DNA of 64,000 nucleotides from an uncultured Chloroflexia bacterium (lineage in GTDB: Bacteria > Chloroflexota > Limnocylindria > Limnocylindrales > CSP1-4): NCBI GenBank assembly GCA_963790915.1, contig CAWBQS010000003.1:552471-616470 (forward strand). The letters are read 5' to 3'. The position numbers were made by a program, and so were the translations under genes. The notes below the pieces were generated by a model. The model saw only the letters and a list, made by a program, of their open reading frames with translations. It had not been told where the DNA came from and did not search any database. Shown piece by piece: positions 13,033 to 34,010 of the stretch. Position 1 is the stretch's first letter. Each line of letters begins with the position of its first letter.

Positions 13033-15132
13033 TCAGACCTCGGCGTACAGATGCCGGGAGATGACGTGATCCTGGTACTCGGGTGAGAGCTCGCAGAAGT
13101 AGCCGCTCCAGCCCCAGACGCGCACGATGAGATCGCGGTGCTCGTCGGGGTGCGCCTTGGCGTCGAGCAGGCGGCTGGCGCTGAGGGCGTTGAGCTGCAG
13201 CTGCTGGCCCCCGAGGTGCGCGAAGGTGCGCACCAGGCCTGCGACCTTGCTGATGGAGTCGGGGCTGCGGAAGACGGAGTCGGACAGCTCCAGGGTGATG
13301 GGGCCGCCGTTGCAGATGCGCCCGTAGTCGATGCCCGCGTAGGACTGCAGCACGCTGATCGGACCGCGGAGCGGCGTGCCCGGCGTGGGCGCCAGGTTGG
13401 CCCCGAACGGGTCGCCCCGGTGCCGTCCGTCCGCGGTGGCGCCGACCACCGGTTCCGGCATGGACGCGTCGCTGCGGCCGCGCGCCAGCCAGAGGTAGTA
13501 CATCGCCGTGCCGGTGCCCGGTCGGACCAGCAGACCCGCCGTCTCCTGCTCCGCCTCGCAGGCATCGGCGAGCCAGTCGTAGAGCTGGCGCAGCAGACCG
13601 TCGACCTCCGGCTCGTGGAGGCCGACGCGGGGGCTCTCCTCCGCCAGCCGGCGCCGCAATGCCTCGTGCCCGGAGAAGTCGGCCGCCAGGGCCGCCAGGA
13701 GCTCATCCGTCGCCACGTCGCGGAGCTCGAAGACGTGCCGCCGCACCGCCGCCAGGGAGTCCGCGGCGCTCGCCGCAGCTGCCCCGTGGATGCCCAGGTT
13801 GCGGTACCTGGCTCCCTGACCATGATCGCGGCCATGCTCCAGCGCGTCCGTCATGAGCACGGAATACCAGGGCGCCGGCGCCCACAGGAGCCGCTCGTAG
13901 GGCTCCACGCGCGCGCGCACCTGGCCGGCGATCTCTGCCCGGGTGCACTCAAGGATGGTCTCGAAGGAGGCGCCCGACGCGAGGCCCTCGCGGATGGCGG
14001 CATCCGCCGCGGCCGGGAAGGAGACCGCGCCGACGTTGCCGACGTCCATGCCGCGCCCCGGGATGATGAACTCCCAGCAGGCCGCCACGGTGTAGTCGCG
14101 GGCGTCCTCCAGGTCGTAGCCGTGGGAGGCCAGGGCCGGGATGACGACGTCGTCGTTGGCGTACTGCGGGAAGCCCAGGCCCTTGCGGGTCAGCTCCGTG
14201 CCCAGCTCCAGGAGGGCCTGGTCGGTTCGCGCGTCGATGCGCAGGTTGACCTTGGGGTCGATGAGCCCGACGTCGCGGGCGACGCGCAGGGCCATCCAGG
14301 TCAGCGGATTGACGGCCGACTCCCCCGCCGGCGTCACGCCACCAAGGGTCATGGACTGGCCGTTGTCGCCCTGCTGGATGCCCGGATACAGGTCGGAATC
14401 GCGGTTGAGGGCGATGAAGGCCTCCGCCAGCAGCTCCTCCGCGCCGGCCTCGTCGAGGCGTCCGGCCGCGAGGTCCGCAGACAGGTAAGGCCAGAGGTAC
14501 TGGTCCAGCCGGCCCAGGCCGACGTGGTGATGGCCAGACAGCCAGACCATGGCCTGCATGAAGCGCAGCGACTGGAGAGCCTCGTGGAGGGTCCGCGCGG
14601 GATGGGCGGGCACGTGCGCCAGCACATCCGCCACCTCGTCCATGCCCAGCCGGCGCGCCTCGGCCTCGTATCGGGCGACCAGGGCCAGGACGGCGTCGAT
14701 GGTCTCCATGGCGGCGGCCGTGAACTCGGCGGCATCGTCGTCGCCGCCGGTCAGTGCCCGCGCATGGGACGCCTCCGCCACGGCGCGGCGGGCCAGCAGG
14801 CCCTGCCCGATGGCCATGCCCCAGTCAGCGCAGACGTTGTTGATGATGCCGCCCTCGTGGAGCGTGCGGCCGGCGGTCAGCGCCGCGAAGTCCTCCGCGG
14901 TGTAGACGCCTGGCACGGCCGGCAGCGTCCGCGTGTAGACGATGCGCTCGTCGGGCTCGATGACGACGCGCTCCGCCTCGCACATGCGCACCGTCAGGCG
15001 AGCGCGGCGCATCGTCCACGAAAGGCCCTCGCGGTCGCACTCGCAGATGAGGTCCGGTGAGGCGTCCTGCCGGTAGGCGGCGAAATGCCCGTCCCGTGTC
15101 CGGGCTCGCAGCCCGATCAAGCGTTCGTTCAT
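13033..15132 (-). CDS. Glycyl radical enzyme, PFL2/eliminase-like, unusually compact (699 aa)
   Basis: C-terminal glycyl-radical fingerprint LIVRVWGWSGYFCELSPEYQDHVISR (Gly674 codon at 13111-13113). Cys-loop DYTVAACWEFIIPGRG (Cys352 at 14077-14079, Glu354 at 14071-14073). QSMTLGG motif. ATGA overlap with the activase stop. Confidence 0.9.
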   Translation of the reverse strand: MNERLIGLRARTRDGHFAAYRQDASPDLICECDREGLSWTMRRARLTVRMCEAERVVIEPDERIVYTRTLPAVPGVYTAEDFAALTAGRTLHEGGIINNVCADWGMAIGQGLLARRAVAEASHARALTGGDDDAAEFTAAAMETIDAVLALVARYEAEARRLGMDEVADVLAHVPAHPARTLHEALQSLRFMQAMVWLSGHHHVGLGRLDQYLWPYLSADLAAGRLDEAGAEELLAEAFIALNRDSDLYPGIQQGDNGQSMTLGGVTPAGESAVNPLTWMALRVARDVGLIDPKVNLRIDARTDQALLELGTELTRKGLGFPQYANDDVVIPALASHGYDLEDARDYTVAACWEFIIPGRGMDVGNVGAVSFPAAADAAIREGLASGASFETILECTRAEIAGQVRARVEPYERLLWAPAPWYSVLMTDALEHGRDHGQGARYRNLGIHGAAAASAADSLAAVRRHVFELRDVATDELLAALAADFSGHEALRRRLAEESPRVGLHEPEVDGLLRQLYDWLADACEAEQETAGLLVRPGTGTAMYYLWLARGRSDASMPEPVVGATADGRHRGDPFGANLAPTPGTPLRGPISVLQSYAGIDYGRICNGGPITLELSDSVFRSPDSISKVAGLVRTFAHLGGQQLQLNALSASRLLDAKAHPDEHRDLIVRVWGWSGYFCELSPEYQDHVISRHLYAEV

Positions 15133-15884
15133 GCCACGCGCACCTCGATGCCCCGCCGGGTGAATGGTTCGATATCGATGTTGGGAGGCCGCTCCTCGTC
15201 GTACCCGGGGGCGAAATCCAGCCCGCAGGCGGCGTACTTGCCACCCGCCGCCCGGTTGTAGGGCAGCAGCTGGACCTCGACGAGGGTCGGCGCCATCTCC
15301 AGCGCGCCGGCGATGGCCTCGAGATTGTCCCCCATGTCGGTCACACCCGGGACCAGCGGGATCCGCGCCACGAAGGGGCGCTCCAGCTCCTCGAGAAGGG
15401 CCAGGTTGCGCAGGATGGGGGCGTTGTCCTGGCCGGTCCAGCGCAGGTGCGCCCCGGGGTCGATGAGCTTGATGTCGAAGTAGATGAGGTCGCAGCGCGA
15501 GGCCACGGCGGCGAAGGGTCCCCTCTCCGCGTAGCCCGACGTATCGAGCACGACATGGAGGCCCTCGAGGCGGTCGATGACGTCGGCCACGAAGGCCGCC
15601 TGCATGAGCGGCTCGCCTCCGGAGAACGTCACGCCGCCGTCATTGAGGCGCAGCACATCGGCCTGGCCCATCAGGAGGGCCGCCAGGTCGCCGGCCTCCC
15701 AGCGGCGACCCACCAGTCGCTCGCCGGCCGCTGAGCGCAGCACCTGCGGCTCCGGGTCCAGGCCCTCGGGGTTGTGGCACCAGGCGCAGCGCAGCGGGCA
15801 GCCCTTCAGGAAGACGGTCGTGCGGATGCCCGGCCCGTCGTGGACCGTGAACTCGCGGATGTCGAAGACGATGCCGGAGCTCAC
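15129..15884 (-). CDS. Glycyl-radical enzyme activating enzyme (radical SAM), short PflA-like form
   Basis: GTG 15884 (GTGA overlap with the ATPase stop). N-terminus VFDIREFTVHDGPGIRTTVFLKGCPLRCAWCHNPE carries the CxxxCxxC motif. The GGEPL SAM motif is present. Only 5 Cys in total, so no ferredoxin-like auxiliary-cluster insert. Confidence 0.9.
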   Translation of the reverse strand: MSSGIVFDIREFTVHDGPGIRTTVFLKGCPLRCAWCHNPEGLDPEPQVLRSAAGERLVGRRWEAGDLAALLMGQADVLRLNDGGVTFSGGEPLMQAAFVADVIDRLEGLHVVLDTSGYAERGPFAAVASRCDLIYFDIKLIDPGAHLRWTGQDNAPILRNLALLEELERPFVARIPLVPGVTDMGDNLEAIAGALEMAPTLVEVQLLPYNRAAGGKYAACGLDFAPGYDEERPPNIDIEPFTRRGIEVRVA

Positions 15885-17476
15885 GCTCCCGTTCCCGCCG
15901 CCGTGCCCGGCGGAGCGGTCGCCGGCGCGTGCGAGACGGCGGCTGGAGCGGCGGCGGCCTTGTCGGGCAGCATCAGGGAGAGGATGGACTGTTCCGTGGC
16001 CTCGCCACGGGCGACCTCCGCGGAGATGGCACCCAAACGCATCACGTAGATGCGGTCGCTCATGCTGATGATCTCGGGCAGGTCGGACGAGATCATGAGC
16101 ACCGCGCCACCCCGATCGGCGATGGCCTCCATGAGCTCGTAGAGCGCATAGCGGGCGGAGACGTCCACACCGCGCGTGGGTTCGTCGAGGACATAGACGA
16201 GACGGTCGCGGGCCAGCCACTTGCCGATGGCGACACGCTGCTGGTTGCCGCCCGACAGGGTGAAGGCGGGCTGGTCCACGCTCCGCGCGACGATGCTCAG
16301 CTCCTGCACCAGTGACGTGGCAAGGACCCGCTCGCGGCGGGGCACGACGAGGGGGCCTGGCCCCAGGCGCGGCCACTCGGTGACGGCCAGGTTGCGCAGG
16401 ATCGGCAGGGGCAGGATGACGCCCTGGTCCTTGCGGTTCTCGGGCACGAAGGCCATGCCCGCGTCCAGCCGGCGGCGCATCGGCCAGCGGGTGACGTCCG
16501 TGCCCTCCAGGAGGACGGCGCCGGAGACCACGGGGTCGGCGCCCACGATGGCCCGCGCCAGCTCCGTGCGACCGGCTCCCACGAGGCCGGCGAGACCCAC
16601 GATCTCCCCGCGGCGGAGCGTGATGGAGACCGGGCCGGAGCCGCCGGCAGGCTGGAGGTCGCGCGTCTCGAGCACGACCTCGCCCGGCGTCGCTGCGTGG
16701 CGCTGGTAGACGGCGTCCAGGTGACGCCCGACCATGCGCTCGACGATCTCGTCGCGGCTGCTGTCCGCGGTGCGCAGCGTGCCCATGGAGCGACCGTCCT
16801 TGAGGACGGAGACGCGGTCGGAGATGACGAAGACCTCGTCGAGGCGGTGCGTCACGAGGACGATGCCCAAGCCCTCGGCGCGCAGGCGGCGCAGGAGCTC
16901 GAAGAGACGCTCCGTCTCGAAACGGCTCAGGCTGGCCGTGGGCTCATCGAGGATGAGGATGCGCGAACGCTCGTTGAGGGCCCGGGCGATCTCTACGAGC
17001 TGCTGCTGGGAGGTTGACAGTCGGTCGACCGGGCTGTCCAGGTCGACGCTGACCCCGAGCGTGGCGATGGCCTCGGCGGCCTGGCGGCGCATCTCGCCCT
17101 TGTCCAGGCGGCGGCCGCGCTTGATCTCCCGGCCCAGGAACATGTTCTCGACGACGGAGAGGTGCGGCGCCAGGCTGAACTCCTGCCAGATGACCGCGAT
17201 GCCCTGGGCGCGCACCTGCGAGATGGTCGTCTCGCCACGCAGGCTACCGTCGACGAGCAGGCTGCCGCCCTCGTAGGGCAGCGCCCCGGCGATGACCTTG
17301 ATGAGGGTCGTCTTGCCGGCGCCGTTCTCGCCCACCAGGGCGTGCACCTCGCCCGCGAGGAGCTCCAGCGAGGCGTCGGCGAGGAGCAGGACGTCCGTGC
17401 CGCGGATGGGCCGGCCGTCGTCGTCGTACGCGTACTTCTGGATGTGCTGGGCGTCAAGGAGGACGGTGCTGGTCAT
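15881..17476 (-). CDS. Sugar ABC transporter ATP-binding protein, duplicated NBD (RbsA/AraG/MglA-like)
   Basis: ATG 17476 (ATGA overlap with the permease stop). First NBD has GENGAGKTT, LSTSQQQLVEIARAL, ILILDEPTASL. Second NBD has GLVGAGRTE, LSGGNQQRVAIGKWL, VYVLDEPTRGVD. It is the C-terminal part of ORF 15881..18514. Confidence 0.9.
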   Translation of the reverse strand: MTSTVLLDAQHIQKYAYDDDGRPIRGTDVLLLADASLELLAGEVHALVGENGAGKTTLIKVIAGALPYEGGSLLVDGSLRGETTISQVRAQGIAVIWQEFSLAPHLSVVENMFLGREIKRGRRLDKGEMRRQAAEAIATLGVSVDLDSPVDRLSTSQQQLVEIARALNERSRILILDEPTASLSRFETERLFELLRRLRAEGLGIVLVTHRLDEVFVISDRVSVLKDGRSMGTLRTADSSRDEIVERMVGRHLDAVYQRHAATPGEVVLETRDLQPAGGSGPVSITLRRGEIVGLAGLVGAGRTELARAIVGADPVVSGAVLLEGTDVTRWPMRRRLDAGMAFVPENRKDQGVILPLPILRNLAVTEWPRLGPGPLVVPRRERVLATSLVQELSIVARSVDQPAFTLSGGNQQRVAIGKWLARDRLVYVLDEPTRGVDVSARYALYELMEAIADRGGAVLMISSDLPEIISMSDRIYVMRLGAISAEVARGEATEQSILSLMLPDKAAAAPAAVSHAPATAPPGTAAGTGA

Positions 17477-23752: not shown

Positions 23753-25022
23753 TCAGCCAGCGATGATGCCCAGCTCGTTGCCCACGCGGGCCATCGTCTC
23801 CAGCGCGCGGTCGAGGTGCTCATCCGTGTGAGCCGCGGTCACGATCGTGCGCAACCGCGCGCCGTCCAGGGGCACGGTGGGGTAGACGACAGAGGTGGCG
23901 AAGATGCCCGCTTCGAAGAGCCGGTCGCTGAAGCGGATGGCGGCCTCCGACTCGCCGACCATGATCGGCGTGATGGGCGTCTCCGAGGCGCCCGTGTCGA
24001 AGCCGAGGCGTGCCAGCTCCGCCTTGAAGCGCCGGGTATTGGCCCAGAGCCGCTCGAAGAGGCCGTCCTCTTCGCGCATGACCGCCAGGGCCTCGAGGCA
24101 GGCCGCCGCCACAGCCGGCGGGTGCGAGGTGGAGAAGAGGAAGGGTCGCGCGCGCTGCGTCAGCAGGTCCCGGAGCACCGTCGAGCCGGCCACGTAGCCT
24201 CCCAGCACACCGACGGCCTTGGAGAGGGTGCCCACCTGGATGGCGACGCGGCCGTGCAGCCCGAAGTGATCCACGCTGCCGCGGCCGTGGTCGCCCAGCA
24301 CACCGGAGGCGTGGGCGTCGTCGACGTACACGGCGGCACCGACCTCCTCGGCGGCGCCCGACGATGCCCGGCAGCGGGCAGATGTCCCCGTCCATGGAGA
24401 AGACCCCGTCGGTCACGACGAGGATGAGCCGGTACGGTTCGCCAGTGCCCGGTCGCCCCTCGGCGACCGCCCGGGCCAGGATGGCGCGCAACGCCGCCAC
24501 GTCCTTGTGCGGGTAGACCTGCCGTGCCGCCCTGGAGAGACGCAGGCCGTCGATGATCGAGGCGTGGTTGAGCGCGTCGCTGACGATGAGGTCCGCTTCG
24601 CCGGTGACGACCGGCAGGACGCCCGTGTTGGCCGTGAAGCCAGACTGGAAGACGAGCGTGGCCTCGGTGGCCTTGAAGTCGGCCAGCTCTCGCTCCAGTC
24701 GTTCGTGGATGGCGAGCGTCCCGGCGATGGTGCGCACGGCCCCGGAGCCGACGCCCAGCTCACGCACGGCCCGCTCCGCGGCAGCCCGCAGGCGCGGGTG
24801 GTGCGTGAGGCCCAGGTAGTCGTTGGAGGAGAAGCTGATGACCTCACGGCCATCGACGCGGCAGACCGGCCCCTGCGCCGTGCCCAGCTCGCGCAACGGG
24901 CGGTAGAGGTGGCGAGCGTGCAGGTCGGCCAGCTCGTCGGCCAGGAAAGCCAGCGGGTCGTGGGTCGCGCGCCTGCCCTGCTCGCCGTGCGGCGGGGGGC
25001 CGGACATCGGTTCGCGGGCCAT
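23753..25022 (-). pseudogene. kbl: 2-amino-3-ketobutyrate CoA ligase (glycine C-acetyltransferase) with one frame break near 24357-24360 (pseudogene or assembly indel)
   Basis: The N-terminal frame reads [36 protein letters not shown]. The C-terminal frame (ORF 23753..24331) reads [21 protein letters not shown]...GTLSKAVG (PLP lysine). The junction is in a CCC/GGG run. The start overlaps the tdh stop. Confidence 0.85.
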
Positions 25023-26371: not shown

Positions 26372-27010
26372 ATGCCAAAGGCACAGATCCCGTCTCCCCC
26401 CGCACCGGTCGGGGGCAGACGCGCCCCGACCTTCCAGGAGGAGATCCTGGCGTCGATCCCGGCCGACTCCCGCCTGGAGACGTGCATCCAGTGCGGCACG
26501 TGCGGGGGATCCTGCCCCTCCGAGCGGGACATGGACCACACGCCTCGCCAGATCTTCGCGCTCATCCGGGCCGGCGCCCGGGATCGCGTCATGGACAGCA
26601 ACACACCCTGGATGTGCGTGTCGTGCTACCTGTGCGCCGTGCGCTGCCCGCAGAAGATCCACATCCCTGACGTCATGTACGCCCTGAAGGCCAAGGCCAC
26701 CCGGGAGAACCGGGTGCCCAGCCACGTGGCCCCCGACTTCTCGCGCACGTTCGTGGATTACATCCACAAGTACGGGCGCAGCTTCGAGGTCGGGCTCGTC
26801 GCCAAGCACTACCTGCGCCACTACATGACGCGCCTGCCCGGCATGACCACCTCCGGCATCGGCATGGTCACCAAGGGCCGCATGGGCTTCCGGCCACATC
26901 GCATCGTCGGGCTGGAGGGCCTCAACGCCATCCTGGCCCGTGCCACCGAGCTCGAGGAGGCCCGGCAGCGCAGCCTCTATGACGCGCCGGTCCAGGACGG
27001 GAGCCACTGA
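26372..27010 (+). CDS. hdrC: Heterodisulfide reductase subunit C
   Basis: Two ferredoxin motifs, CIQCGTCGGSCP and CVSCYLCAVRCP. 212 aa. TGATG junction with hdrB. Confidence 0.9.
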   Translation: MPKAQIPSPPAPVGGRRAPTFQEEILASIPADSRLETCIQCGTCGGSCPSERDMDHTPRQIFALIRAGARDRVMDSNTPWMCVSCYLCAVRCPQKIHIPDVMYALKAKATRENRVPSHVAPDFSRTFVDYIHKYGRSFEVGLVAKHYLRHYMTRLPGMTTSGIGMVTKGRMGFRPHRIVGLEGLNAILARATELEEARQRSLYDAPVQDGSH

Positions 27011-27876
27011 TGGCCGAGTACCTCTACTACCCCGGCTGCTCGATGGATGGCACCGGACGCGCCTACCACGACTCGATCGTGTCCGTGCTGCCGGAGCTGG
27101 ACATCCGCCTCGCGGAGCTCGACGACTGGAACTGCTGCGGGGCGACCGAGTACATGGGCATCAGCCCGCTTCGCTCGCAGGCGCTCGTGGGCCGCAACCT
27201 CGCCCTCGCGGAACGACAGAAGACCGATCGGGACACGCTGGTGGCGCCCTGCAGCGCCTGTTATGTGAACCTCGCCCGGACGGATTCCTACGTGCGCGAG
27301 TCGCCGGAGCTGGCGGCCACCGTCAACGAGGCCCTGGCTGCGGACGGCATGAGCTACACCCCGGGCTCGATCGCCGTGCGGCACCTGTTGGAGGTCCTCC
27401 TCGATGACGTGGGGCTCGAGGAGATCGGCCGCCACGTCCGCCGACCCCTCAAGGGACTCAAGCTGGCTCCCTACATGGGCTGCCTCGTCTCGCGCCCGGA
27501 CTACGACGACCGCTGGCAGCACCGTGAACACCCGCATGCCCTTGACCAACTGCTGCTGACCCTGGGCGCGGACGTCGTCGAGTTCTCCCGGCGCACGGAC
27601 TGCTGCGGCGGACACATGACGCAGATCAGCCCGGAGACCGGCCTGGAGCTCATCCGCCGGCTGATCGTGGCGGCCGAGCGCAGCGGGGCGCACGCCCTGG
27701 TGACCGTCTGCCCGATGTGCCAGATGAACGTGGACTTCTACCAGCGGGAGATGAACCACCACTACCGCGAGAACCACCACATGCCCATCCTCTTCTTCAC
27801 GCAGCTGATGGGCCTGGCCTACGGCATGGCACCGGAGCGCCTGGGCTTCGGGCGGGAGATCGATCTCCTCGCATGA
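27010..27876 (+). CDS. hdrB: Heterodisulfide reductase subunit B (two CCG domains)
   Basis: YYPGCS.., NCCGAT.., PCSACY; second half MGCLVSRP.., DCCGGH.., VCPMCQMN. Confidence 0.9.
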   Translation: MAEYLYYPGCSMDGTGRAYHDSIVSVLPELDIRLAELDDWNCCGATEYMGISPLRSQALVGRNLALAERQKTDRDTLVAPCSACYVNLARTDSYVRESPELAATVNEALAADGMSYTPGSIAVRHLLEVLLDDVGLEEIGRHVRRPLKGLKLAPYMGCLVSRPDYDDRWQHREHPHALDQLLLTLGADVVEFSRRTDCCGGHMTQISPETGLELIRRLIVAAERSGAHALVTVCPMCQMNVDFYQREMNHHYRENHHMPILFFTQLMGLAYGMAPERLGFGREIDLLA

Positions 27877-27880
27877 GGCC

Positions 27881-28024
27881 ATGGGTCGCATCGGCATCGA
27901 GGTCCCGGTCCCTGATGGGGAGGAGGTCGAGCCGTCCAGCCCGGACAAGCCTGTCCGGCGCAAGCGTGGTGACGTCTGGCTGCCGGCCCCGGAGCCCATG
28001 CCAGACGAGGAGGTCCTGCGATGA
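27881..28024 (+). CDS. Possible 47-aa acidic/proline-rich micro-ORF between hdrB and hdrA
   Basis: ATG 27881 to TGA 28022-28024, overlapping the hdrA ATG (ATGA). Product MGRIGIEVPVPDGEEVEPSSPDKPVRRKRGDVWLPAPEPMPDEEVLR. 39 of 47 codons end in G/C. The RBS is weak (GAGG only 2 nt from the ATG). It is below the ORF-track length cut-off. Confidence 0.35.
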   Translation: MGRIGIEVPVPDGEEVEPSSPDKPVRRKRGDVWLPAPEPMPDEEVLR

Positions 28025-30060
28025 CCGCGCTCCGCACCGGCGTCTACATCTGCCATTGCGGCACGAACATCGCCGGCACGGTCGATGTGGCGGCCGTCCG
28101 CGACTGGGCCCAGGAGGCGCTCGCCGAGAAGGGCGTCGTGGTCGCCCGCGACTACCCCTTCATGTGCTCCAGCCTCGGCCAGGAGCTCATCGAGAAGGAC
28201 ATCGCGGAGCTCGGCCTGGAGCGCATCGTGGTGGGCGCCTGCTCGCCGCACATGCACGAGAAGACCTTCCGGACCGCCAGCGCCAACGCCGGCCTGAACC
28301 CCTACCTCACGGAGCTCGTCTCCATCCGCGAGCAGGTCTCGTGGGTGCATACGGACAAGGCCAGGGCCACTGAGAAGGCCAAGGCCATCATCGCCGGCGG
28401 CGTCTACCGCGTCCAGGAGCAGGTACCCCTGGAGCCACTGGTGGCGCCGGTCAACCCGGCCACGCTCATCGTGGGTGGCGGCATCGCCGGCATCACGGCC
28501 GCCCTGGAGCTCGCTGATGCCGGCTACCCGGTCCACATCGTGGAGCGCGAGCCGTCGATCGGCGGGCACATGGCCCAGTACGACAAGACGTTCCCGACGC
28601 TCGACTGCGCGGCCTGCATCCTGACCCCCAAGATGGTGGACGCGGGCGCCCACGACAACATCACGCTGCACACCTGGAGCGAGGTGGTGGACGTCTCGGG
28701 CTCCGTGGGTGACTTCAAGATCAAGGTCAAGCACAAGCCCCGCTATGTCGTCGAGAAGGACTGCACGGGCTGCGGCATCTGCATCGAGAAGTGCCCGGTG
28801 CAGGTCGTGGACACGGGCTTCGAGGCTGGCATCGGCTACCGCAAGTCGATCTATACGCCGTTCCCCCAGTCCGTGCCCAAGTACCCCGTGCTGACGCCAG
28901 CCGACTGCACCTACTTCACCAAGGGCACCTGCAAGGCCTGCGAGAAGTTCTGCCCCACGAACGCCATCGACTTCACGCAGACCGAGCAGTTCGTCGACCT
29001 CAACGTCGGCAACATCCTCATCGCCACGGGCTTCGCCCCATTCGACGCGCGGCGCATCGAGTCCTTCGGCTATCGCCGCCTGCCGAACGTCTTCACGAGC
29101 ATGGAGTTCGAGCGCATGAGCAACGCCGCCGGGCCGACCGGCGGTCGCATCGTCCTGCGCGACGGCGTCACGAAGCCACGCGCCGTGGCCATCGTCCACT
29201 GCGTCGGCTCCCGGGACAAGAACACCAACGAGTACTGCTCGGCCATCTGCTGCATGCAGTCGCTGAAGTTCGCGCACCTGGTCAAGGAGCACACCAACGC
29301 CGACGTGTACGAGTGCTACATCGACATGCGCACGCCGGGCAAGGGTTACGACGAGTTCTACAACCGCATCCTCAACGAGGGCACGCAGTTCATCCGCGGT
29401 CGCGTCGCGGAGATCTCGGACGCCCTGCGATACCCGGAGGAGGAAGGCCACGAGGGCCGCCTCATCGTCCAGGTGGAGGACACGCTGGCAGGCGCCACGC
29501 GGCGCTTGCCGGTGGACATGGTCATCCTCTCGGTGGGCCTGGAGCCCCAGCCGGACGCCGTCGAGGTGGCGCGGATGTTCGGCATCGGCTGCAGCAGCAA
29601 GGGCTTCATCATCGAGCGTCACGCCAAGCTGGCGCCCGTGGCCACCATGACCGACGGCGTCTTCGCCGCAGGCGCCGCCCTGGGGCCGCGCGACATCCCC
29701 ACCAGCGTCTCCAATGGAGGGGCGGCCGCGGCCCAGATCCTGAGCCGCATCTCCCAGGGCCAGATCTCGCTGGAGCCCTACCGGGCCACTGTGGACGAGG
29801 CGCGCTGCTCCGGCTGCCGCATCTGCAACGACCTCTGCCCCTTCAGCGCCATCAGCTTCGACGAGGGCGCCATGGTGACGCACATCGATCCCAAGCTCTG
29901 CCAGGGCTGTGGCGTCTGCGTGGCGGCCTGCCCCGCTCGCGCCATCGCCGGCAGTGGCTTCAGCCACGAACAGATCATCGCCCAGATCGACGGCCTGCTC
30001 CTGGATGCCTTCGGGACAGCCAGTGCCACCGTCCTGGAAGCGGCGGGGGTGACAGCATGA
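28021..30060 (+). CDS. hdrA: Heterodisulfide reductase subunit A (FAD, multiple 4Fe-4S)
   Basis: VGGGIAGITAALELA dinucleotide fold. HdrA signature VHCVGSRDKNTNEYCSAICC. Ferredoxin motifs CTGCGICIEKCP, CKACEKFCP, CSGCRICNDLCP, CQGCGVCVAACP. Confidence 0.93.
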   Translation: MTALRTGVYICHCGTNIAGTVDVAAVRDWAQEALAEKGVVVARDYPFMCSSLGQELIEKDIAELGLERIVVGACSPHMHEKTFRTASANAGLNPYLTELVSIREQVSWVHTDKARATEKAKAIIAGGVYRVQEQVPLEPLVAPVNPATLIVGGGIAGITAALELADAGYPVHIVEREPSIGGHMAQYDKTFPTLDCAACILTPKMVDAGAHDNITLHTWSEVVDVSGSVGDFKIKVKHKPRYVVEKDCTGCGICIEKCPVQVVDTGFEAGIGYRKSIYTPFPQSVPKYPVLTPADCTYFTKGTCKACEKFCPTNAIDFTQTEQFVDLNVGNILIATGFAPFDARRIESFGYRRLPNVFTSMEFERMSNAAGPTGGRIVLRDGVTKPRAVAIVHCVGSRDKNTNEYCSAICCMQSLKFAHLVKEHTNADVYECYIDMRTPGKGYDEFYNRILNEGTQFIRGRVAEISDALRYPEEEGHEGRLIVQVEDTLAGATRRLPVDMVILSVGLEPQPDAVEVARMFGIGCSSKGFIIERHAKLAPVATMTDGVFAAGAALGPRDIPTSVSNGGAAAAQILSRISQGQISLEPYRATVDEARCSGCRICNDLCPFSAISFDEGAMVTHIDPKLCQGCGVCVAACPARAIAGSGFSHEQIIAQIDGLLLDAFGTASATVLEAAGVTA

Positions 30061-30602
30061 CCGCAGTGACGACCACGGCGGACCAGGTGACCAGGCCGGC
30101 GGTCGCACCGACGGCGCCGAGGGTGCCGGAGCCATCCGGGCAGCCCTTCGAGCCGCTCATCCTGGGTTTCACCTGCAACTGGTGCAGCTACCGTGCCGCC
30201 GACCTGGCCGGCACGGCCCGCACCAAGTACCCGTTCAACGTCCGGCTCGTGCGCCTCATGTGCTCGGGCCGCATGGAACCCGAGTTCATCCTGGAGGGGT
30301 TCGCGCGCGGCGCGGACGCGGTCATCATGACCGGCTGCTGGCCTGAGGACTGCCACTACCGCATCCAGAGCGTCAAGGCCCTGCGGCGCTTCCTCTTCCT
30401 GCGGCGCACCCTGGCGGACCTGGGCATCGAGCCCACCCGGCTGCAGCGCTTCTACGCCAGCGCCGCGGAGGGCCAGCGCTTCGCCGACGAGATGGCCCGC
30501 ATCGTCGCGGAGGTCCGGGCCCTCGGGCCCATCCGGCCTGAGGTCCGCGCGACGTTGGCCGTGGCCCCCCCAGCCGCTGAGCCCGCGGAGGTGCTGGCAT
30601 GA
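30057..30602 (+). CDS. mvhD: Methyl-viologen-reducing hydrogenase delta subunit (MvhD)
   Basis: ATG 30057 (ATGA overlap with the hdrA stop). FTCNWCSY, RLMCSGR, TGCWPEDCHY are the MvhD/FlpD Cys pattern. Confidence 0.88.
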   Translation: MTAVTTTADQVTRPAVAPTAPRVPEPSGQPFEPLILGFTCNWCSYRAADLAGTARTKYPFNVRLVRLMCSGRMEPEFILEGFARGADAVIMTGCWPEDCHYRIQSVKALRRFLFLRRTLADLGIEPTRLQRFYASAAEGQRFADEMARIVAEVRALGPIRPEVRATLAVAPPAAEPAEVLA

Positions 30603-31696
30603 CGACCCCGACCACACTGACGGCCGCGACCGCTGCGGCGCTGGAGGTGTCCGCTGCGGGCACCGCGCCGGCCGCTGCGGGCACCGTGGCGACCCCCACG
30701 CCCGCGCCGGCCCCCACGGAGGCGCCGGCCAGCCGGTACAAGCTGGCCATGTACTGGGCCTCGGCCTGTGGCGGCTGTGACGTGGCCGTCCTCAACCTGG
30801 GTATGAAGCTCATCGAGCTGACGGAGCGCTGGGAGCCCGTCTTCTGGCCAGCGGCCATGGACGTCAAGCGTTCGACGGTGCGAGCCATGGAAGACGGGGA
30901 GATCGACGTCTGCCTCTTCGATGGCGGCATCCGCACGGACGAGGACGCGGAGATGGCCCACCTTCTGCGGGCCAAGTCCAAGGTCCTGGTCGCCTTCGGG
31001 TCGTGCGCCGGTGAGGGCTGCATCCCCGGCCTCGCCAACCAGCGCAGCGTGGACAGCATCTATGCCGCGGCCTACGACCCCACGCTCAACGACAACGCAG
31101 ACGGACTGCGGCCGGGCGGCGCCTGGATGTCGCCCTGGGGCGAGCTGCACCTGCCCACGCTGGAGAACCGACTGCGGACCCTGGACCAGGTGGTGACCGT
31201 GGACTACCGCGTGCCCGGCTGCCCACCCGAGACCGAGCGCATCGCCGAAGTGCTCACGACGGTCACGGCGGCCCTCGACGGCAAGGTCCCCCTGCCGCCG
31301 CCCGGCGCCGTCCTGGGGGCTGGCACGTCCACCGTCTGCGACGAATGCGGACGCACCCGCGGCATCAAGCACGTCACGGAGTTCCGGCGCATCCAATCGC
31401 TGGCGGAGGTGGACGCCACGCTCTGTCTGCTCGAGCAGGGCCTGCCCTGCTGTGGCCCGGCCGCCCGCGATGGCTGCGGAGCCAAGTGCCCCAGCGCCGG
31501 GGCGCCCTGCATCGGCTGCTATGGGGCAACCGACGGCGTCCGCGACTTTGGGGCCCGACTCCTCTCGGCTTACGCCTCCGTCGTGGAGGCCAGCGAGCCA
31601 GAGGATATCGAGCGCATCCTGGCCGGCCTGCCGGACATGGTGGGCCAGTTCTACCGCTTCAGCCTGGCAGCCTCGCTGCTCCATGGGGGCCGCTGA
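30599..31696 (+). CDS. mvhG: [NiFe]-hydrogenase small subunit, MvhG-type (group 3c-like)
   Basis: ATGA overlap with the mvhD stop. ASACGGCD, GSCAGEGCIPG, VPGCPP, and a distal cluster region CDECG...CLLEQGLPCCGPAARDGCGAKCPSAGAPCIGCYG. A 45-aa Ala/Thr/Pro-rich N-terminal extension is present if ATG 30599 is used. Confidence 0.85.
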   Translation: MTTPTTLTAATAAALEVSAAGTAPAAAGTVATPTPAPAPTEAPASRYKLAMYWASACGGCDVAVLNLGMKLIELTERWEPVFWPAAMDVKRSTVRAMEDGEIDVCLFDGGIRTDEDAEMAHLLRAKSKVLVAFGSCAGEGCIPGLANQRSVDSIYAAAYDPTLNDNADGLRPGGAWMSPWGELHLPTLENRLRTLDQVVTVDYRVPGCPPETERIAEVLTTVTAALDGKVPLPPPGAVLGAGTSTVCDECGRTRGIKHVTEFRRIQSLAEVDATLCLLEQGLPCCGPAARDGCGAKCPSAGAPCIGCYGATDGVRDFGARLLSAYASVVEASEPEDIERILAGLPDMVGQFYRFSLAASLLHGGR

Positions 31697-33166
31697 TGAC
31701 ACGCCTGACCATCGATCCTGTCACGCGCCTCGAGGGCCACGGCAAGATCGAGATCCTGCTCGACGAGTCGGGCGACGTCGCCCATACCTACTTCCAGATC
31801 CCTGAGCTGCGCGGCTTCGAGTCGTTCTGCGTGGGGCGGCCCGTGGAGGACATGCCGGCGCTGACCAACCGCATCTGCGGCGTCTGCCCGGAGGCCCACC
31901 ACATGGCCTCGGCGAAGGCCGCCGACGCCGTCTACAAGGTCACGCCACCGCCAGCCGGCCGCAAGCTGCGTGAGCTGCTCTACAACGCCTTCTACGTCAC
32001 CGACCACGCCACGCACTTCTACGTCCTCTCGGGCCCGGACCTCATCATGGGCCCCGACGCGCCGGCTGCGGAGCGCAACATCCTTGGCGTCGTCAAGAAG
32101 GTCGGCGTCGAGATCGGCAAGCAGGTCATCGATGTCCGCGCCGCCGGTCACCGCGTCATCGAGATCATCGGTGGACGGCGCATCCACCCCTGCACCGGCG
32201 TTCCCGGGCGGCATGACCAAGGCCATCAGCGAAGAGGAGCGCGCCGAGATCGAGGCGCTCGGCACGCAGATGCTGGATTTCGCCGGCTTCAGCCTGCAGC
32301 TCTTCGCGAAGATGCTCGCCGAGGATGGCTCCGTCGAGGAGCTCGTGAAGGGCGACCTCTATCGCCACGAGACCTACTACTCGGGCCTCGTGGATGCCGA
32401 TGACAAGGTCACCTTCTATGACGGCCGCATCAAGGTGGTCGCCCCCGATGGCGAGGTCTACGGCACCTACGAGCCGCGGGACTACCGCGACTGGATCGCC
32501 GAGCGCGTGGAGCCCTGGACGTTCCTGAAGTTCCCGTACCTGAAAGGCGTCGGCTGGAAGGGCCTCGTGGACGGCAAGGACTCGGGCATCTACACGGTGG
32601 CTCCGCTGGGTCGTCTCAACGTCGCCTCCGGCATGGCCACACCGCGGGCCCAGGAGGCCTACGAGCAGTACTTCGCCACGCTCTCGCCGGATGGCACCCC
32701 GGTGCACTCACGCGGCGCGATGCACTGGGCTCGCCTCATCGAGCTCATGCAGGGGGCGGAGACGGTGTTGCAGCTGTCACGCGATCCGGAGATCACCTCG
32801 CCGCACGTGCGTGCCGTGCCCACCGACATCCCCACCGAGGGCGTCGGCACGGTGGAGGCACCGCGCGGCACGCTCACGCACCACTACTGGACGGACGAGC
32901 GCGGCGTGATCACGCGCGTCAACCTGATCGTGGGGACCACGAACAACTACGGGCCCATCGCCATGTCCGTGGACAAGGCGGCGCGCAGCCTCATCCACAA
33001 GGGCAGCATCGTCACCGACGGCCTGCTGGACCGCATCGAGATGGGCTTCCGGGCCTACGACCCCTGCTTCGGCTGCGCCACCCACGCGCTGCCCGGCCAG
33101 ATGCCCATGCTCGTCACCATCCGCGATGCTGACGGGAACGCGATCCGTGAGCTGCGGCGTGACTGA
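31696..33166 (+). pseudogene. mvhA: [NiFe]-hydrogenase large subunit, MvhA-type, with one frame break near 32203-32211 (pseudogene or assembly indel)
   Basis: The N-terminal frame reads DPVTRLEGHGKI and RICGVCPEAHHMAS (proximal Ni ligands) up to GGRRIHPCTGVPG. The frame of ORF 31970..33166 continues GGMTKAISEEE...VEAPRGTLTHHY...YDPCFGCATH plus a 26-aa cleavable tail. The junction is in CCCGGGCGG. Confidence 0.88.
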
Positions 33167-33196
33167 CCGCGGCACGCTGCGGGCCAAGGGCCCGTC

Positions 33197-33721
33197 GTGA
33201 GCGCGATGGTCGATGGCCGGGCGGACTACGGGGTTCGCCTGGCCGAGCCGGGGGAGGTCCTCGTGGTCGGCCTGGGAAACCCGATCCTGGGCGATGACGG
33301 GGTGGGCTGGCGCGTCATCGACGAGCTGGATGCCATGCGCCACAGCCCGGCCAGCCTGCAGCAGGCCTGCGTCGGCGGCGTGAGCCTCATGGAGATCATG
33401 GTGGGTTATCGACGCGCCATCATCGTGGACGCCGTCCGGGACACGGCGGCGCCACTCGGCAGCGTCTGGTGCCGACCGCTGGCAGCGGTCGAGACGCGGC
33501 TGGCAAGCCATCTCGATTCGACGCATGATGCGACGCTTCCGGCCGCGTTGCTGGCCGGACGGGCCATGGGCGCCGAACTGCCCAGTGAGATCGACGTCGT
33601 GGGCATCGTCATCGATCGCGGCGATGTCTTCGGCGAGCTACTGAGCGACGCCGTCGAGGCGGCCATCCCGGTCGCCGCAGCGGCAGTGGAGGAGATGCTT
33701 CGAGGGCACAGCCCTCGGTAG
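33197..33721 (+). CDS. Hydrogenase maturation endopeptidase (HycI/FrhD/HyaD family)
   Basis: VLVVGLGNPILGDDGVGWRV and IIVDAV motifs. Start is GTG 33197 or in-frame ATG 33206. Confidence 0.85.
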   Translation: MSAMVDGRADYGVRLAEPGEVLVVGLGNPILGDDGVGWRVIDELDAMRHSPASLQQACVGGVSLMEIMVGYRRAIIVDAVRDTAAPLGSVWCRPLAAVETRLASHLDSTHDATLPAALLAGRAMGAELPSEIDVVGIVIDRGDVFGELLSDAVEAAIPVAAAAVEEMLRGHSPR

Positions 33722-33737
33722 CAGAAGGGGGACACTC

Positions 33738-34010
33738 ATGCACGAAGCAGGTGTCACGGAGCGGATCCTGGAGGTCGTGATCGAGCACGCCAAGGAAGCC
33801 CAGGCGCAGCGGGTCACGGATGTCTACCTGGAGGTCGGCGAGGAATCCGGTATCGATACCGAATCCGTCGAACTCCACTGGCCGCTCCTGTCACGGGGCT
33901 CGGTGGCTGAAGGGGCCACGCTGCACTTCGATCACTCGGAGGCGCCATTCACCTTCCGGCTCACCAGCATCGAGGTGGATGAGGCCAGCCCCGTTCCCGC
34001 GGCCGGCTGA
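33738..34010 (+). CDS. hypA: HypA-like nickel metallochaperone lacking the zinc-finger domain (90 aa)
   Basis: RBS GAAGGGGGA. The N-terminal Ni motif MHE is present, and the segment RGSVAEGATLHFDHSEA resembles HypA. The two CxxC pairs are absent, and the sequence jumps to the C-terminal beta strand FTFRLTSIEVDE. Confidence 0.7.
   Translation: MHEAGVTERILEVVIEHAKEAQAQRVTDVYLEVGEESGIDTESVELHWPLLSRGSVAEGATLHFDHSEAPFTFRLTSIEVDEASPVPAAG

Follow-up and report, generated by a model that had tools for sequence, protein, structure and literature searches.

Introduction

The closest described counterparts of the gene cluster analyzed here are the MvhAGD-HdrABC complexes of hydrogenotrophic methanogens (PDB 5ODC, 8RVU, 9SW2). 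The cluster is an hdrC-hdrB-hdrA-mvhD-mvhG-mvhA-protease-hypA operon in a stretch of 64,000 nucleotides (the window) of an uncultured Chloroflexia bacterium (assembly GCA_963790915.1, contig CAWBQS010000003.1, positions 552,471 to 616,470). It encodes the same six subunits with the same cofactor-binding motifs, including the connector protein MvhD, and every subunit as well as every metal-cluster and flavin motif of the methanogen complex is present. The likeness extends to the large subunit, as the L1 and L2 Ni-Fe motifs and a cleavable C-terminal tail occur both in the methanogen MvhA and in the protein described here. However, there are also differences. The host is a bacterium without acetyl-CoA synthase and without any methanogen background, HdrB carries an additional C-terminal tail of about 50 amino acids, the genes are united in one operon with the order hdrCBA-mvhDGA, and the large subunit belongs to a separate, long-stemmed Chloroflexota clade.

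A second point of reference is provided by the clusters of group 3c hydrogenase and hdrABC genes of Anaerolineae and Dehalococcoidia (bioRxiv 10.1101/2021.08.23.457424). They represent the same operon with an identical gene order, and their mvhA is 65-69% identical to that of the window. The operon in the window differs from them by its position in a Limnocylindria-like branch (relatives of 72-90% identity), by a HypA that lacks the zinc finger, and by a variable MvhG N-terminus of low complexity. HdrA2B2C2 of Methanosarcina acetivorans (NCBIfam NF040770) supplies the best model for HdrA (784 bits), and MvhD resembles the C-terminal domain of HdrA2. In contrast to HdrA2B2C2, HdrA and MvhD are separate proteins here, a hydrogenase is attached, and the score stays below 1100 bits. 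The electron-bifurcating NiFe-HydABCSL of Acetomicrobium mobile (PDB 7T2R) contains the top-scoring large subunit of solved structure (400 bits). However, it makes use of a NuoEF-type module instead of Hdr, and in the tree its large subunit is placed with HoxH (group 3d) and the two other hydrogenases of this genome, not with MvhA of the window.

Group 3c hydrogenases preceded by hdrABC have been reported to rank among the most abundant types of hydrogenase in the Chloroflexi (bioRxiv 10.1101/2021.08.23.457424, a preprint of 2021). Public genomes hold at least 589 stretches that encode an mvhA relative, and 80 related loci, mostly of Chloroflexota, were fetched and compared. The order hdrC-hdrB-hdrA-mvhD-mvhG-mvhA is kept in all 80 loci wherever the contig reaches, and in nearly all of them mvhA is followed by the protease gene. 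The operon is thus genuine but ordinary for Chloroflexota, and because it is common in this phylum and has previously been described in kind, it is not an unusual find. In the deposited sequence, mvhA and hdrB are each interrupted by a break of the reading frame. The explanation that we regard as probable for the locus as a whole is a Chloroflexota-type Mvh-Hdr operon, the frame breaks of which are errors of the assembly.

Operon structure and host lineage

The eight co-directional genes occupy positions 26372-34010 on the plus strand, and their products were identified by Pfam, NCBIfam and PDB matches (Table 1). An earlier note, which had been made from the sequence of the window alone, had described a complete hdrCBA-mvhDGA-endopeptidase-hypA module. 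All eight genes with the domains it named are present, but completeness does not extend to the reading frames of mvhA and hdrB, which are broken as sequenced. The cofactor motifs it had listed, i.e., RICGVCP, DPCFGCATH, CSAICC, the CCG domains of HdrB and the Cys set of MvhD, were all confirmed, and the ATGA and TGATG gene overlaps are real in the DNA. These stop/start overlaps join the genes of the operon and make the region from hdrC to hypA a translationally coupled operon. The encoded proteins are 81-92% identical to their same-genus orthologues. As had also been noted, the cluster lies beside tdh-kbl; a zinc-type dehydrogenase and a class I/II aminotransferase are encoded upstream. An Rfam scan of the window revealed one tRNA alone and no riboswitch near the operon, and a scan for promoter and terminator consensus sequences yielded nothing exceeding chance.

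Table 1. Positions of the operon genes, the two frame breaks and a further anaerobic function in the window.
Feature	Position	Strand	Characteristics
hdrC	26372..27010	+	two [4Fe-4S] motifs (CIQCGTCGGSCP, CVSCYLCAVRCP); Pfam Fer4_8/Fer4_17
hdrB	27010..28024	+	Pfam CCG twice, all 10 cluster cysteines; frame as sequenced stops at 27876
hdrA	28021..30060	+	679 amino acids; N-terminal Cys cluster, flavin adenine dinucleotide (FAD) domain (GGGIAG), CSAICC, inserted ferredoxin domain, C-terminal 2x[4Fe-4S] ferredoxin domain
mvhD	30057..30602	+	[2Fe-2S] FlpD-family connector between hydrogenase and HdrA; Pfam FlpD 1.4e-41; start overlaps hdrA stop (ATGA)
mvhG	30599..31696	+	[NiFe] small subunit; Pfam Oxidored_q6; best NCBIfam model VhuG, 194 bits
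mvhA	31696..33166	+	[NiFe] large subunit in two frames (31696-32208, 32210-33166); Pfam NiFeSe_Hases in both pieces
[NiFe] hydrogenase maturation endopeptidase	33197..33721	+	NCBIfam TIGR00072, 87.3 bits (cut-off 47.45); Pfam HycI weak
hypA-like	33738..34010	+	90 amino acids; Pfam HypA positions 1-69 of 112, 55.7 bits (cut-off 28.9)
hdrB frame break	27858..27865	+	GATCGATC where intact relatives read GATCATC
mvhA frame break	32203..32211	+	CCCGGGCGG, one base longer than CCNGGCGG of every relative
glycyl radical enzyme and activase	13033-16376	-	in the window

The start codon of hdrC is uncertain, the coding signal begins at about 26422. The best NCBIfam model for HdrC is TIGR03290 (HdrC) with 83 bits (cut-off 160), and the identity to same-genus loci is 81-86%. 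The translation of hdrB contains the pattern CX31CCX37CXXC, and in its matches to known structures (8rvv_B and 5odc_B, 121-136 bits) all ten cluster cysteines are aligned. The scores of HdrB with the NCBIfam models MFR SdhE and HdrB are 171.6 versus 170.6 bits (cut-off of the HdrB model 345). HdrA can be aligned over its full length with 8rvu_a and 5odc_A (632-635 bits), and its scores with the HdrA models range from 611 bits to the value with HdrA2, as against 1100-1400 bits. Because HdrC, HdrB and HdrA stay under the NCBIfam equivalog cut-offs, these scores suggest that HdrABC is Hdr-like and should not be filed as CoB-CoM reductase.

The hydrogenase part gave a similar picture. MvhD matches VhuD with 111 bits and also the C-terminal MvhD-like part of HdrA2. 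MvhG has an N-terminal extension of about 45 amino acids, which is rich in Ala, Thr and Pro (30599-30740). In same-genus loci the extension is of variable length (10-40 amino acids), and it does not occur in Anaerolineae; the same-genus MvhG always begins at an ATG that is coupled to the mvhD stop. The translations of mvhA carry RICGVCPEAHH, DPCFGCATH and the cleavable C-terminal tail, and the read-through protein matches chain D of 7t2r better than MvhA of the methanogen complex (5odc_F, 383 bits). In the PDB matches of HdrB, HdrA and MvhA, solved Mvh-Hdr complexes rank first or nearly so. The best NCBIfam model for MvhA is VhuA with 366 bits.

The closest mvhA relatives in named public genomes are all found in metagenome-assembled genomes (MAGs) of Chloroflexota, which is at variance with the "Gram-positive-type genome" of the earlier note. 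The same-genus matches (84-90% identity) belong to bins named "uncultured Chloroflexia bacterium MFD...", while the identity is about 72% for Limnocylindria-labelled bins and 65-69% for Anaerolineae. The assembly has a size of 3.32 Mb in five contigs, with the window on contig 3, a completeness of 85%, and a G+C content of 71%. The host is probably a soil-type, Limnocylindria-like member of the Chloroflexota. Chloroflexota-type operons of 65-73% identity were also observed in five bins that are labelled Solirubrobacteraceae, Chthonomonadales, Gemmatimonadales and Chitinophagales (L027, L031, L037, L066, L076). They nest within the Chloroflexota clade, and either lateral transfer or mis-binned contigs would account for them.

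Frame breaks in mvhA and hdrB

The frame break in mvhA that the earlier note had pointed out is present in the deposited sequence. At this site the DNA reads GTTCCCGGGCGGCATGACC, while the relatives read GTNCCNGGCGGNNNGACC, which encodes V-P-G-G-(M/Q/L)-T; exactly one surplus base is contained in a run of C and G (CCCGGGC). The gene is a single open frame in all 80 loci, and in nine other species of the same genus the orthologue (84-90% identity) is a single open frame of 489 amino acids. In G010, another low-completeness MAG of the same genus, mvhA is distributed over at least four frame pieces. Apart from the break, mvhA of the window has no in-frame stop codons and has not lost any motif. 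The ratio of window-specific non-synonymous to synonymous codons is 26:35 for mvhA and ranges from 14:16 to 34:49 for the unbroken neighbours, and all values are far below neutral. Selection did not differ between the parts of mvhA upstream and downstream of the break (8:13 versus 18:22). This comparison is not discriminating, because the raised ratio is common to the intact neighbour genes.

Ribosomes are known to be prone to +1 slips at CCC-N. The additional base could therefore be real and be bypassed by a +1 slip at CCC-G, a proline codon, in the form of programmed or tolerated frameshifting, and skipping of one base after CCC would indeed yield the conserved peptide ...GVPGGMTK.... However, the same peptide would result from any single-base surplus within the run, the additional base is found in no relative, which means that the recoding site would not be conserved, a stimulatory element was neither looked for nor noticed, and similar breaks are numerous throughout the genome. 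Ribosomal slippage is thus hardly credible as an explanation.

The frequency of such breaks was estimated with a codon-position hidden Markov detector, which was built for this genome and counts same-strand frame switches away from stop codons. It reported 312 frame-switch-like sites in 3.32 Mb, equal to 0.94 per 10 kb, and it re-found the breaks in mvhA, kbl, dppD and a permease gene in the window. The same detector yielded only 0.2-0.3 per 10 kb for relatives (265 kb of two fragmented same-genus assemblies, and the MFD loci). Some of the top-ranked matches with long flanks are adjacent genes (kdpA/kdpB, murD/ftsW), and the count is to be read as an estimate of the rate, with the relatives as the necessary control. 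In this assembly the part of rpoB encoding the C-terminal tail is frame-broken, and transport genes are likewise affected. The sister MFD MAGs stem from a catalogue that is based exclusively on Nanopore reads, with Flye as the assembler and a single round of Medaka polishing.

Several individual genes of this assembly illustrate the forms that the breaks take. The hypE gene (contig 3, 70279-71413) is divided between two frames, and an arginine-deiminase-like arcA gene (contig 3, 80167-82112) consists of four consecutive frame segments. The kbl-like aminotransferase gene is frame-broken at position 24358 of the window, and Pfam covers profile positions 2-167 of 361 in its long open reading frame.

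The break in hdrB, which the earlier note had missed, moves the last approximately 50 residues (27881-28024) into another frame. When it is read through, HdrB has 337 amino acids, and its TGA overlaps with the ATG of hdrA (ATGA). In intact relatives HdrB likewise runs about 50 residues past ...GFGREI, with the consensus ...ISAR.AL..IGIE.P....RRKRGD..LP.P.P...EEVLR. This basic tail with an LP(M)P-type motif at its end is conserved among the Chloroflexota loci, and it lies beyond the alignments with HdrB of the methanogen structures, which reach to about residue 278-280 of the query. The apparent open reading frame of 47 codons between hdrB and hdrA is the displaced C-terminal tail of HdrB.

The hdrB break is not confined to the window, because three MFD MAGs of different species (L021, L023, L026) also read GAGATCGATCTC instead of GAGATCATCTC. 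The tail is read in frame in L020, L022, L024 and L025, two of which (L020 and L025) are same-genus MFD MAGs with an intact hdrB, as well as in all sampled Anaerolineae-type loci, and the break does not occur in the two loci labelled Anaerolineae and Chthonomonadales whose DNA was read. A break of the same type was found in a HoxH-like gene on contig 5, with CAGATCGATCGAG in place of the expected CAGATCATCGAG. Genome-wide, a frame change is associated with GATCGATC at 8 of the 22 sites that can be scored confidently, and all changes are +1. At GATC, CCGG and CCCGGG, as well as at control 8-mers, 2-4% of the sites show such a change, apart from the small control GAGCGAGC with 8.6% (3/35). The occurrence of one and the same break in the assemblies of four species at a context-specific hot spot suggests that it is likely a systematic consensus error.

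Four precisely placed breaks fall at sites that contain CCGG or GATC. A methylation motif was considered as the cause of all breaks and was rejected, as the enrichment near detector junctions is only weak (GATC 1.5x, CCGG 1.2x); the CTAG signal at the junctions is a stop-codon artefact. Only the 8-mer GATCGATC held up in the genome-wide motif test, for which the detector junctions are imprecise, and CCCGGG failed.

The earlier note had named a decaying cluster as the alternative. In that case the breaks would be real, the cluster would have been inactivated recently, and mvhA and hdrB would be pseudogenes in a genome-wide wave of pseudogene formation. In favour of this, the deposited sequence does contain the breaks, hypE and two of the three genes for hydrogenase large subunits are broken, which could mean a loss of hydrogen metabolism, and unique non-synonymous changes are slightly raised throughout the operon. 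On the other hand, rpoB, kbl, arcA and transport genes are broken too, and a rate that is 3-4 times that of the relatives is implausible for a free-living organism with a genome of 3.3 Mb. Furthermore, the identical hdrB break recurs in the long-read MAGs of three other species and is absent from L020, L022, L024 and L025, the changes at the hot spot GATCGATC are uniformly +1, and neither mvhA nor hdrB has acquired in-frame stops or deletions or has lost ligands. Decay is therefore improbable, and both breaks fit assembly artefacts in view of the intact relatives, the high error load, and the hot spot. The breaks in mvhA and hdrB are most likely single-base consensus errors of the long-read assembly, and if so, the operon is intact in the organism.

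Hydrogenase group

In a tree without outgroup, a 100/97 split separates MvhA of the window and the other MvhA proteins from HoxH (5xf9), HydL of A. mobile (7t2r) and the two other large subunits of this genome. When group 3b was included as outgroup, three clades were obtained, i.e., archaeal MvhA, a 3d-like clade, and a Chloroflexota Hdr-linked clade with a long stem (100/100), which joins archaeal MvhA in the best tree at a support of 69/9.6. The phylogeny indicates that the large subunit is not a member of group 3a, 3b or 3d, and does so clearly for 3b and 3d. The label 3c would combine a weak phylogeny with a strong gene context, namely, the adjacent mvhD and hdrABC. The earlier note had stated that a large subunit outside of group 3c would refute its reading, and the answer is intermediate, as the protein is separate from 3b and 3d but the sister relationship to archaeal MvhA is weak.

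The two further [NiFe] large subunits of this genome are encoded on the minus strand of contig 5 (220.5-221.9 kb and 378.5-379.9 kb) and group with HoxH and HydL of A. mobile (3d-like). The first copy is frame-broken and the second is intact. Genes for a small subunit and a NuoG-like protein are located upstream, and a NuoF-like/GltD-like fusion is encoded near the second copy. A fourth hydrogenase was observed in some members of the genus at loci L119-L121 (genomes G019, G001, G021); its best PDB matches are to sulfhydrogenase I (group 3b) with about 200 bits.

A zinc-less HypA

The HypA-like protein starts with MHEAGV... and has kept the MHE nickel motif, but it does not contain any cysteine, and the zinc-finger half is missing. 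Its score with TIGR00100 (54.4 bits) is below the cut-off of 88.1. All same-genus loci encode a cysteine-free HypA of 85-90 amino acids, and HypA is similarly short in Limnocylindria-like loci (short forms altogether in L008-L026, L027, L038, L047, L050, L057 and L085). In contrast, HypA of Anaerolineae-type loci has 110-126 amino acids, two CxxC pairs and four or more cysteines, and the HypA proteins of two Chloroflexota-labelled loci (L086, L094) have 131-137 amino acids and 4-6 cysteines, with the CxxC pairs kept. The zinc-less HypA is a real and conserved feature of the lineage, and it is the most unusual thing about the module. A literature search for a zinc-less HypA in Chloroflexi revealed nothing relevant.

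The genome was also searched for the hypBCDEF genes, as the earlier note had proposed, with success for all but one of them. The genes hypF, hypC, hypD and the frame-broken hypE are located at 70-75 kb of contig 3, about 480 kb from the operon, but no HypB of this genome reaches the cut-off. There is no second hypA in the assembly, and the operon copy is the only HypA. Within the genus a bona fide HypB is encoded in three genomes only, all of which are devoid of an mvhA orthologue.

Putative mechanism and physiology

The bifurcation mechanism of complexes of the PDB 5ODC type is well established, and the following scheme is drawn from it. By analogy with the methanogen complexes, H2 would be split at the Ni-Fe site of MvhA, and the electrons would travel via MvhG with its three clusters and the [2Fe-2S] cluster of MvhD to the FAD of HdrA, where they would be bifurcated. 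One branch would lead via the ferredoxin domains of HdrA to low-potential ferredoxin. The other would pass through HdrC and reach HdrB, the two non-cubane clusters of which would reduce a disulfide other than CoM-S-S-CoB and DsrC. The reaction may also run in reverse, and the complex would then be an H2-releasing valve fed by ferredoxin from pyruvate:ferredoxin oxidoreductases. We lean slightly towards H2 uptake, and the release of H2 during fermentation is a serious alternative. The earlier view that the operon encodes a hydrogenase/heterodisulfide reductase of the electron-bifurcating type in a non-methanogen is in agreement with these results. Every methanogen equivalog cut-off was missed, and the genome search did not reveal a homolog of DsrC/TusE.

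The genome contains two loci for 2-oxoacid:ferredoxin oxidoreductases (POR), one of which is a single frame of 1226 amino acids. These enzymes and the glycyl radical enzyme are oxygen-sensitive and bear out the anaerobic capacity that the earlier note had deduced. Two loci for heme-copper oxidases are present as well, and an acetyl-CoA synthase (CdhC/AcsB) was not found in the genome. Because of the heme-copper oxidases and the missing acetyl-CoA synthase, the organism appears to be a facultative anaerobe and not an acetogen.

It is possible, although we consider it rather doubtful, that bifurcation with reduction of a disulfide is not the role of the complex in vivo. It might instead run mainly in reverse, as a ferredoxin-driven, H2-evolving redox valve under hypoxia, or it might serve a non-disulfide acceptor via HdrB and HdrC. 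The occurrence of aerobic oxidases side by side with PFOR-type enzymes and a glycyl radical enzyme, with neither a Wood-Ljungdahl pathway nor a DsrC-type electron sink, would be in line with such a role, as would the nearly equal scores of HdrB on the MFR SdhE and HdrB models and its Chloroflexota-specific C-terminal tail, which does not exist in the methanogen structures. However, the two non-cubane clusters, which cleave disulfides, have kept their full set of ten cysteines, and HdrA retains the complete bifurcating architecture.

Several points weigh against the explanation of the locus as a Chloroflexota-type Mvh-Hdr operon with assembly errors. With respect to function, the hunt for an acceptor gave no candidate (no DsrC, and one other gene with a CCG domain, at 525 kb of contig 3), the best NCBIfam models HdrC, HdrB, HdrA2, VhuD, VhuG and VhuA are all matched below their equivalog cut-offs, and the function is not simply transferable from methanogens, because the large subunit forms a long-stemmed clade of its own. 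Nickel would have to be inserted without HypB and with a truncated HypA. With respect to the breaks, CCCGGG sites are not a frame-shift hot spot genome-wide (2.8%), and the break in mvhA is therefore classified as a generic indel. As the site is outside of the hot spot, its interpretation as an artefact is based on the general error load and on the comparative evidence, and a real mutation at this position is conceivable. For both genes the case for assembly errors is one of comparison and statistics. Lastly, the share of non-synonymous changes among the unique changes of the window lineage is somewhat above that of most relatives throughout the operon, which could reflect a mild relaxation of selection.

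Conclusions

As bacterial Mvh-Hdr operons are widespread and the type has already been reported for Chloroflexi, the value of the operon as a discovery is small, and the question which disulfide is reduced by the bacterial HdrB does not become more testable with this uncultured MAG. For annotators it is useful that GATCGATC is a recurrent context of false insertions in this family of long-read MAGs. Frame breaks of the assembly, including those in mvhA and hdrB and the apparent gene of 47 codons, should not be taken as biology.

For the family, a tentative idea, with the odds rather against it, is that the Hdr-linked hydrogenases of Chloroflexota constitute a subgroup of their own apart from archaeal 3c, which would operate in facultatively aerobic soil bacteria and reduce a cellular disulfide, possibly docked via the basic LP(M)P tail of HdrB. 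In the Limnocylindria-like branch these enzymes would be matured by the HypA without zinc finger and without the help of HypB, and nickel would thus be delivered by a different route. The conserved zinc-less HypA in the absence of HypB represents a modest lead for research on the maturation of hydrogenases.

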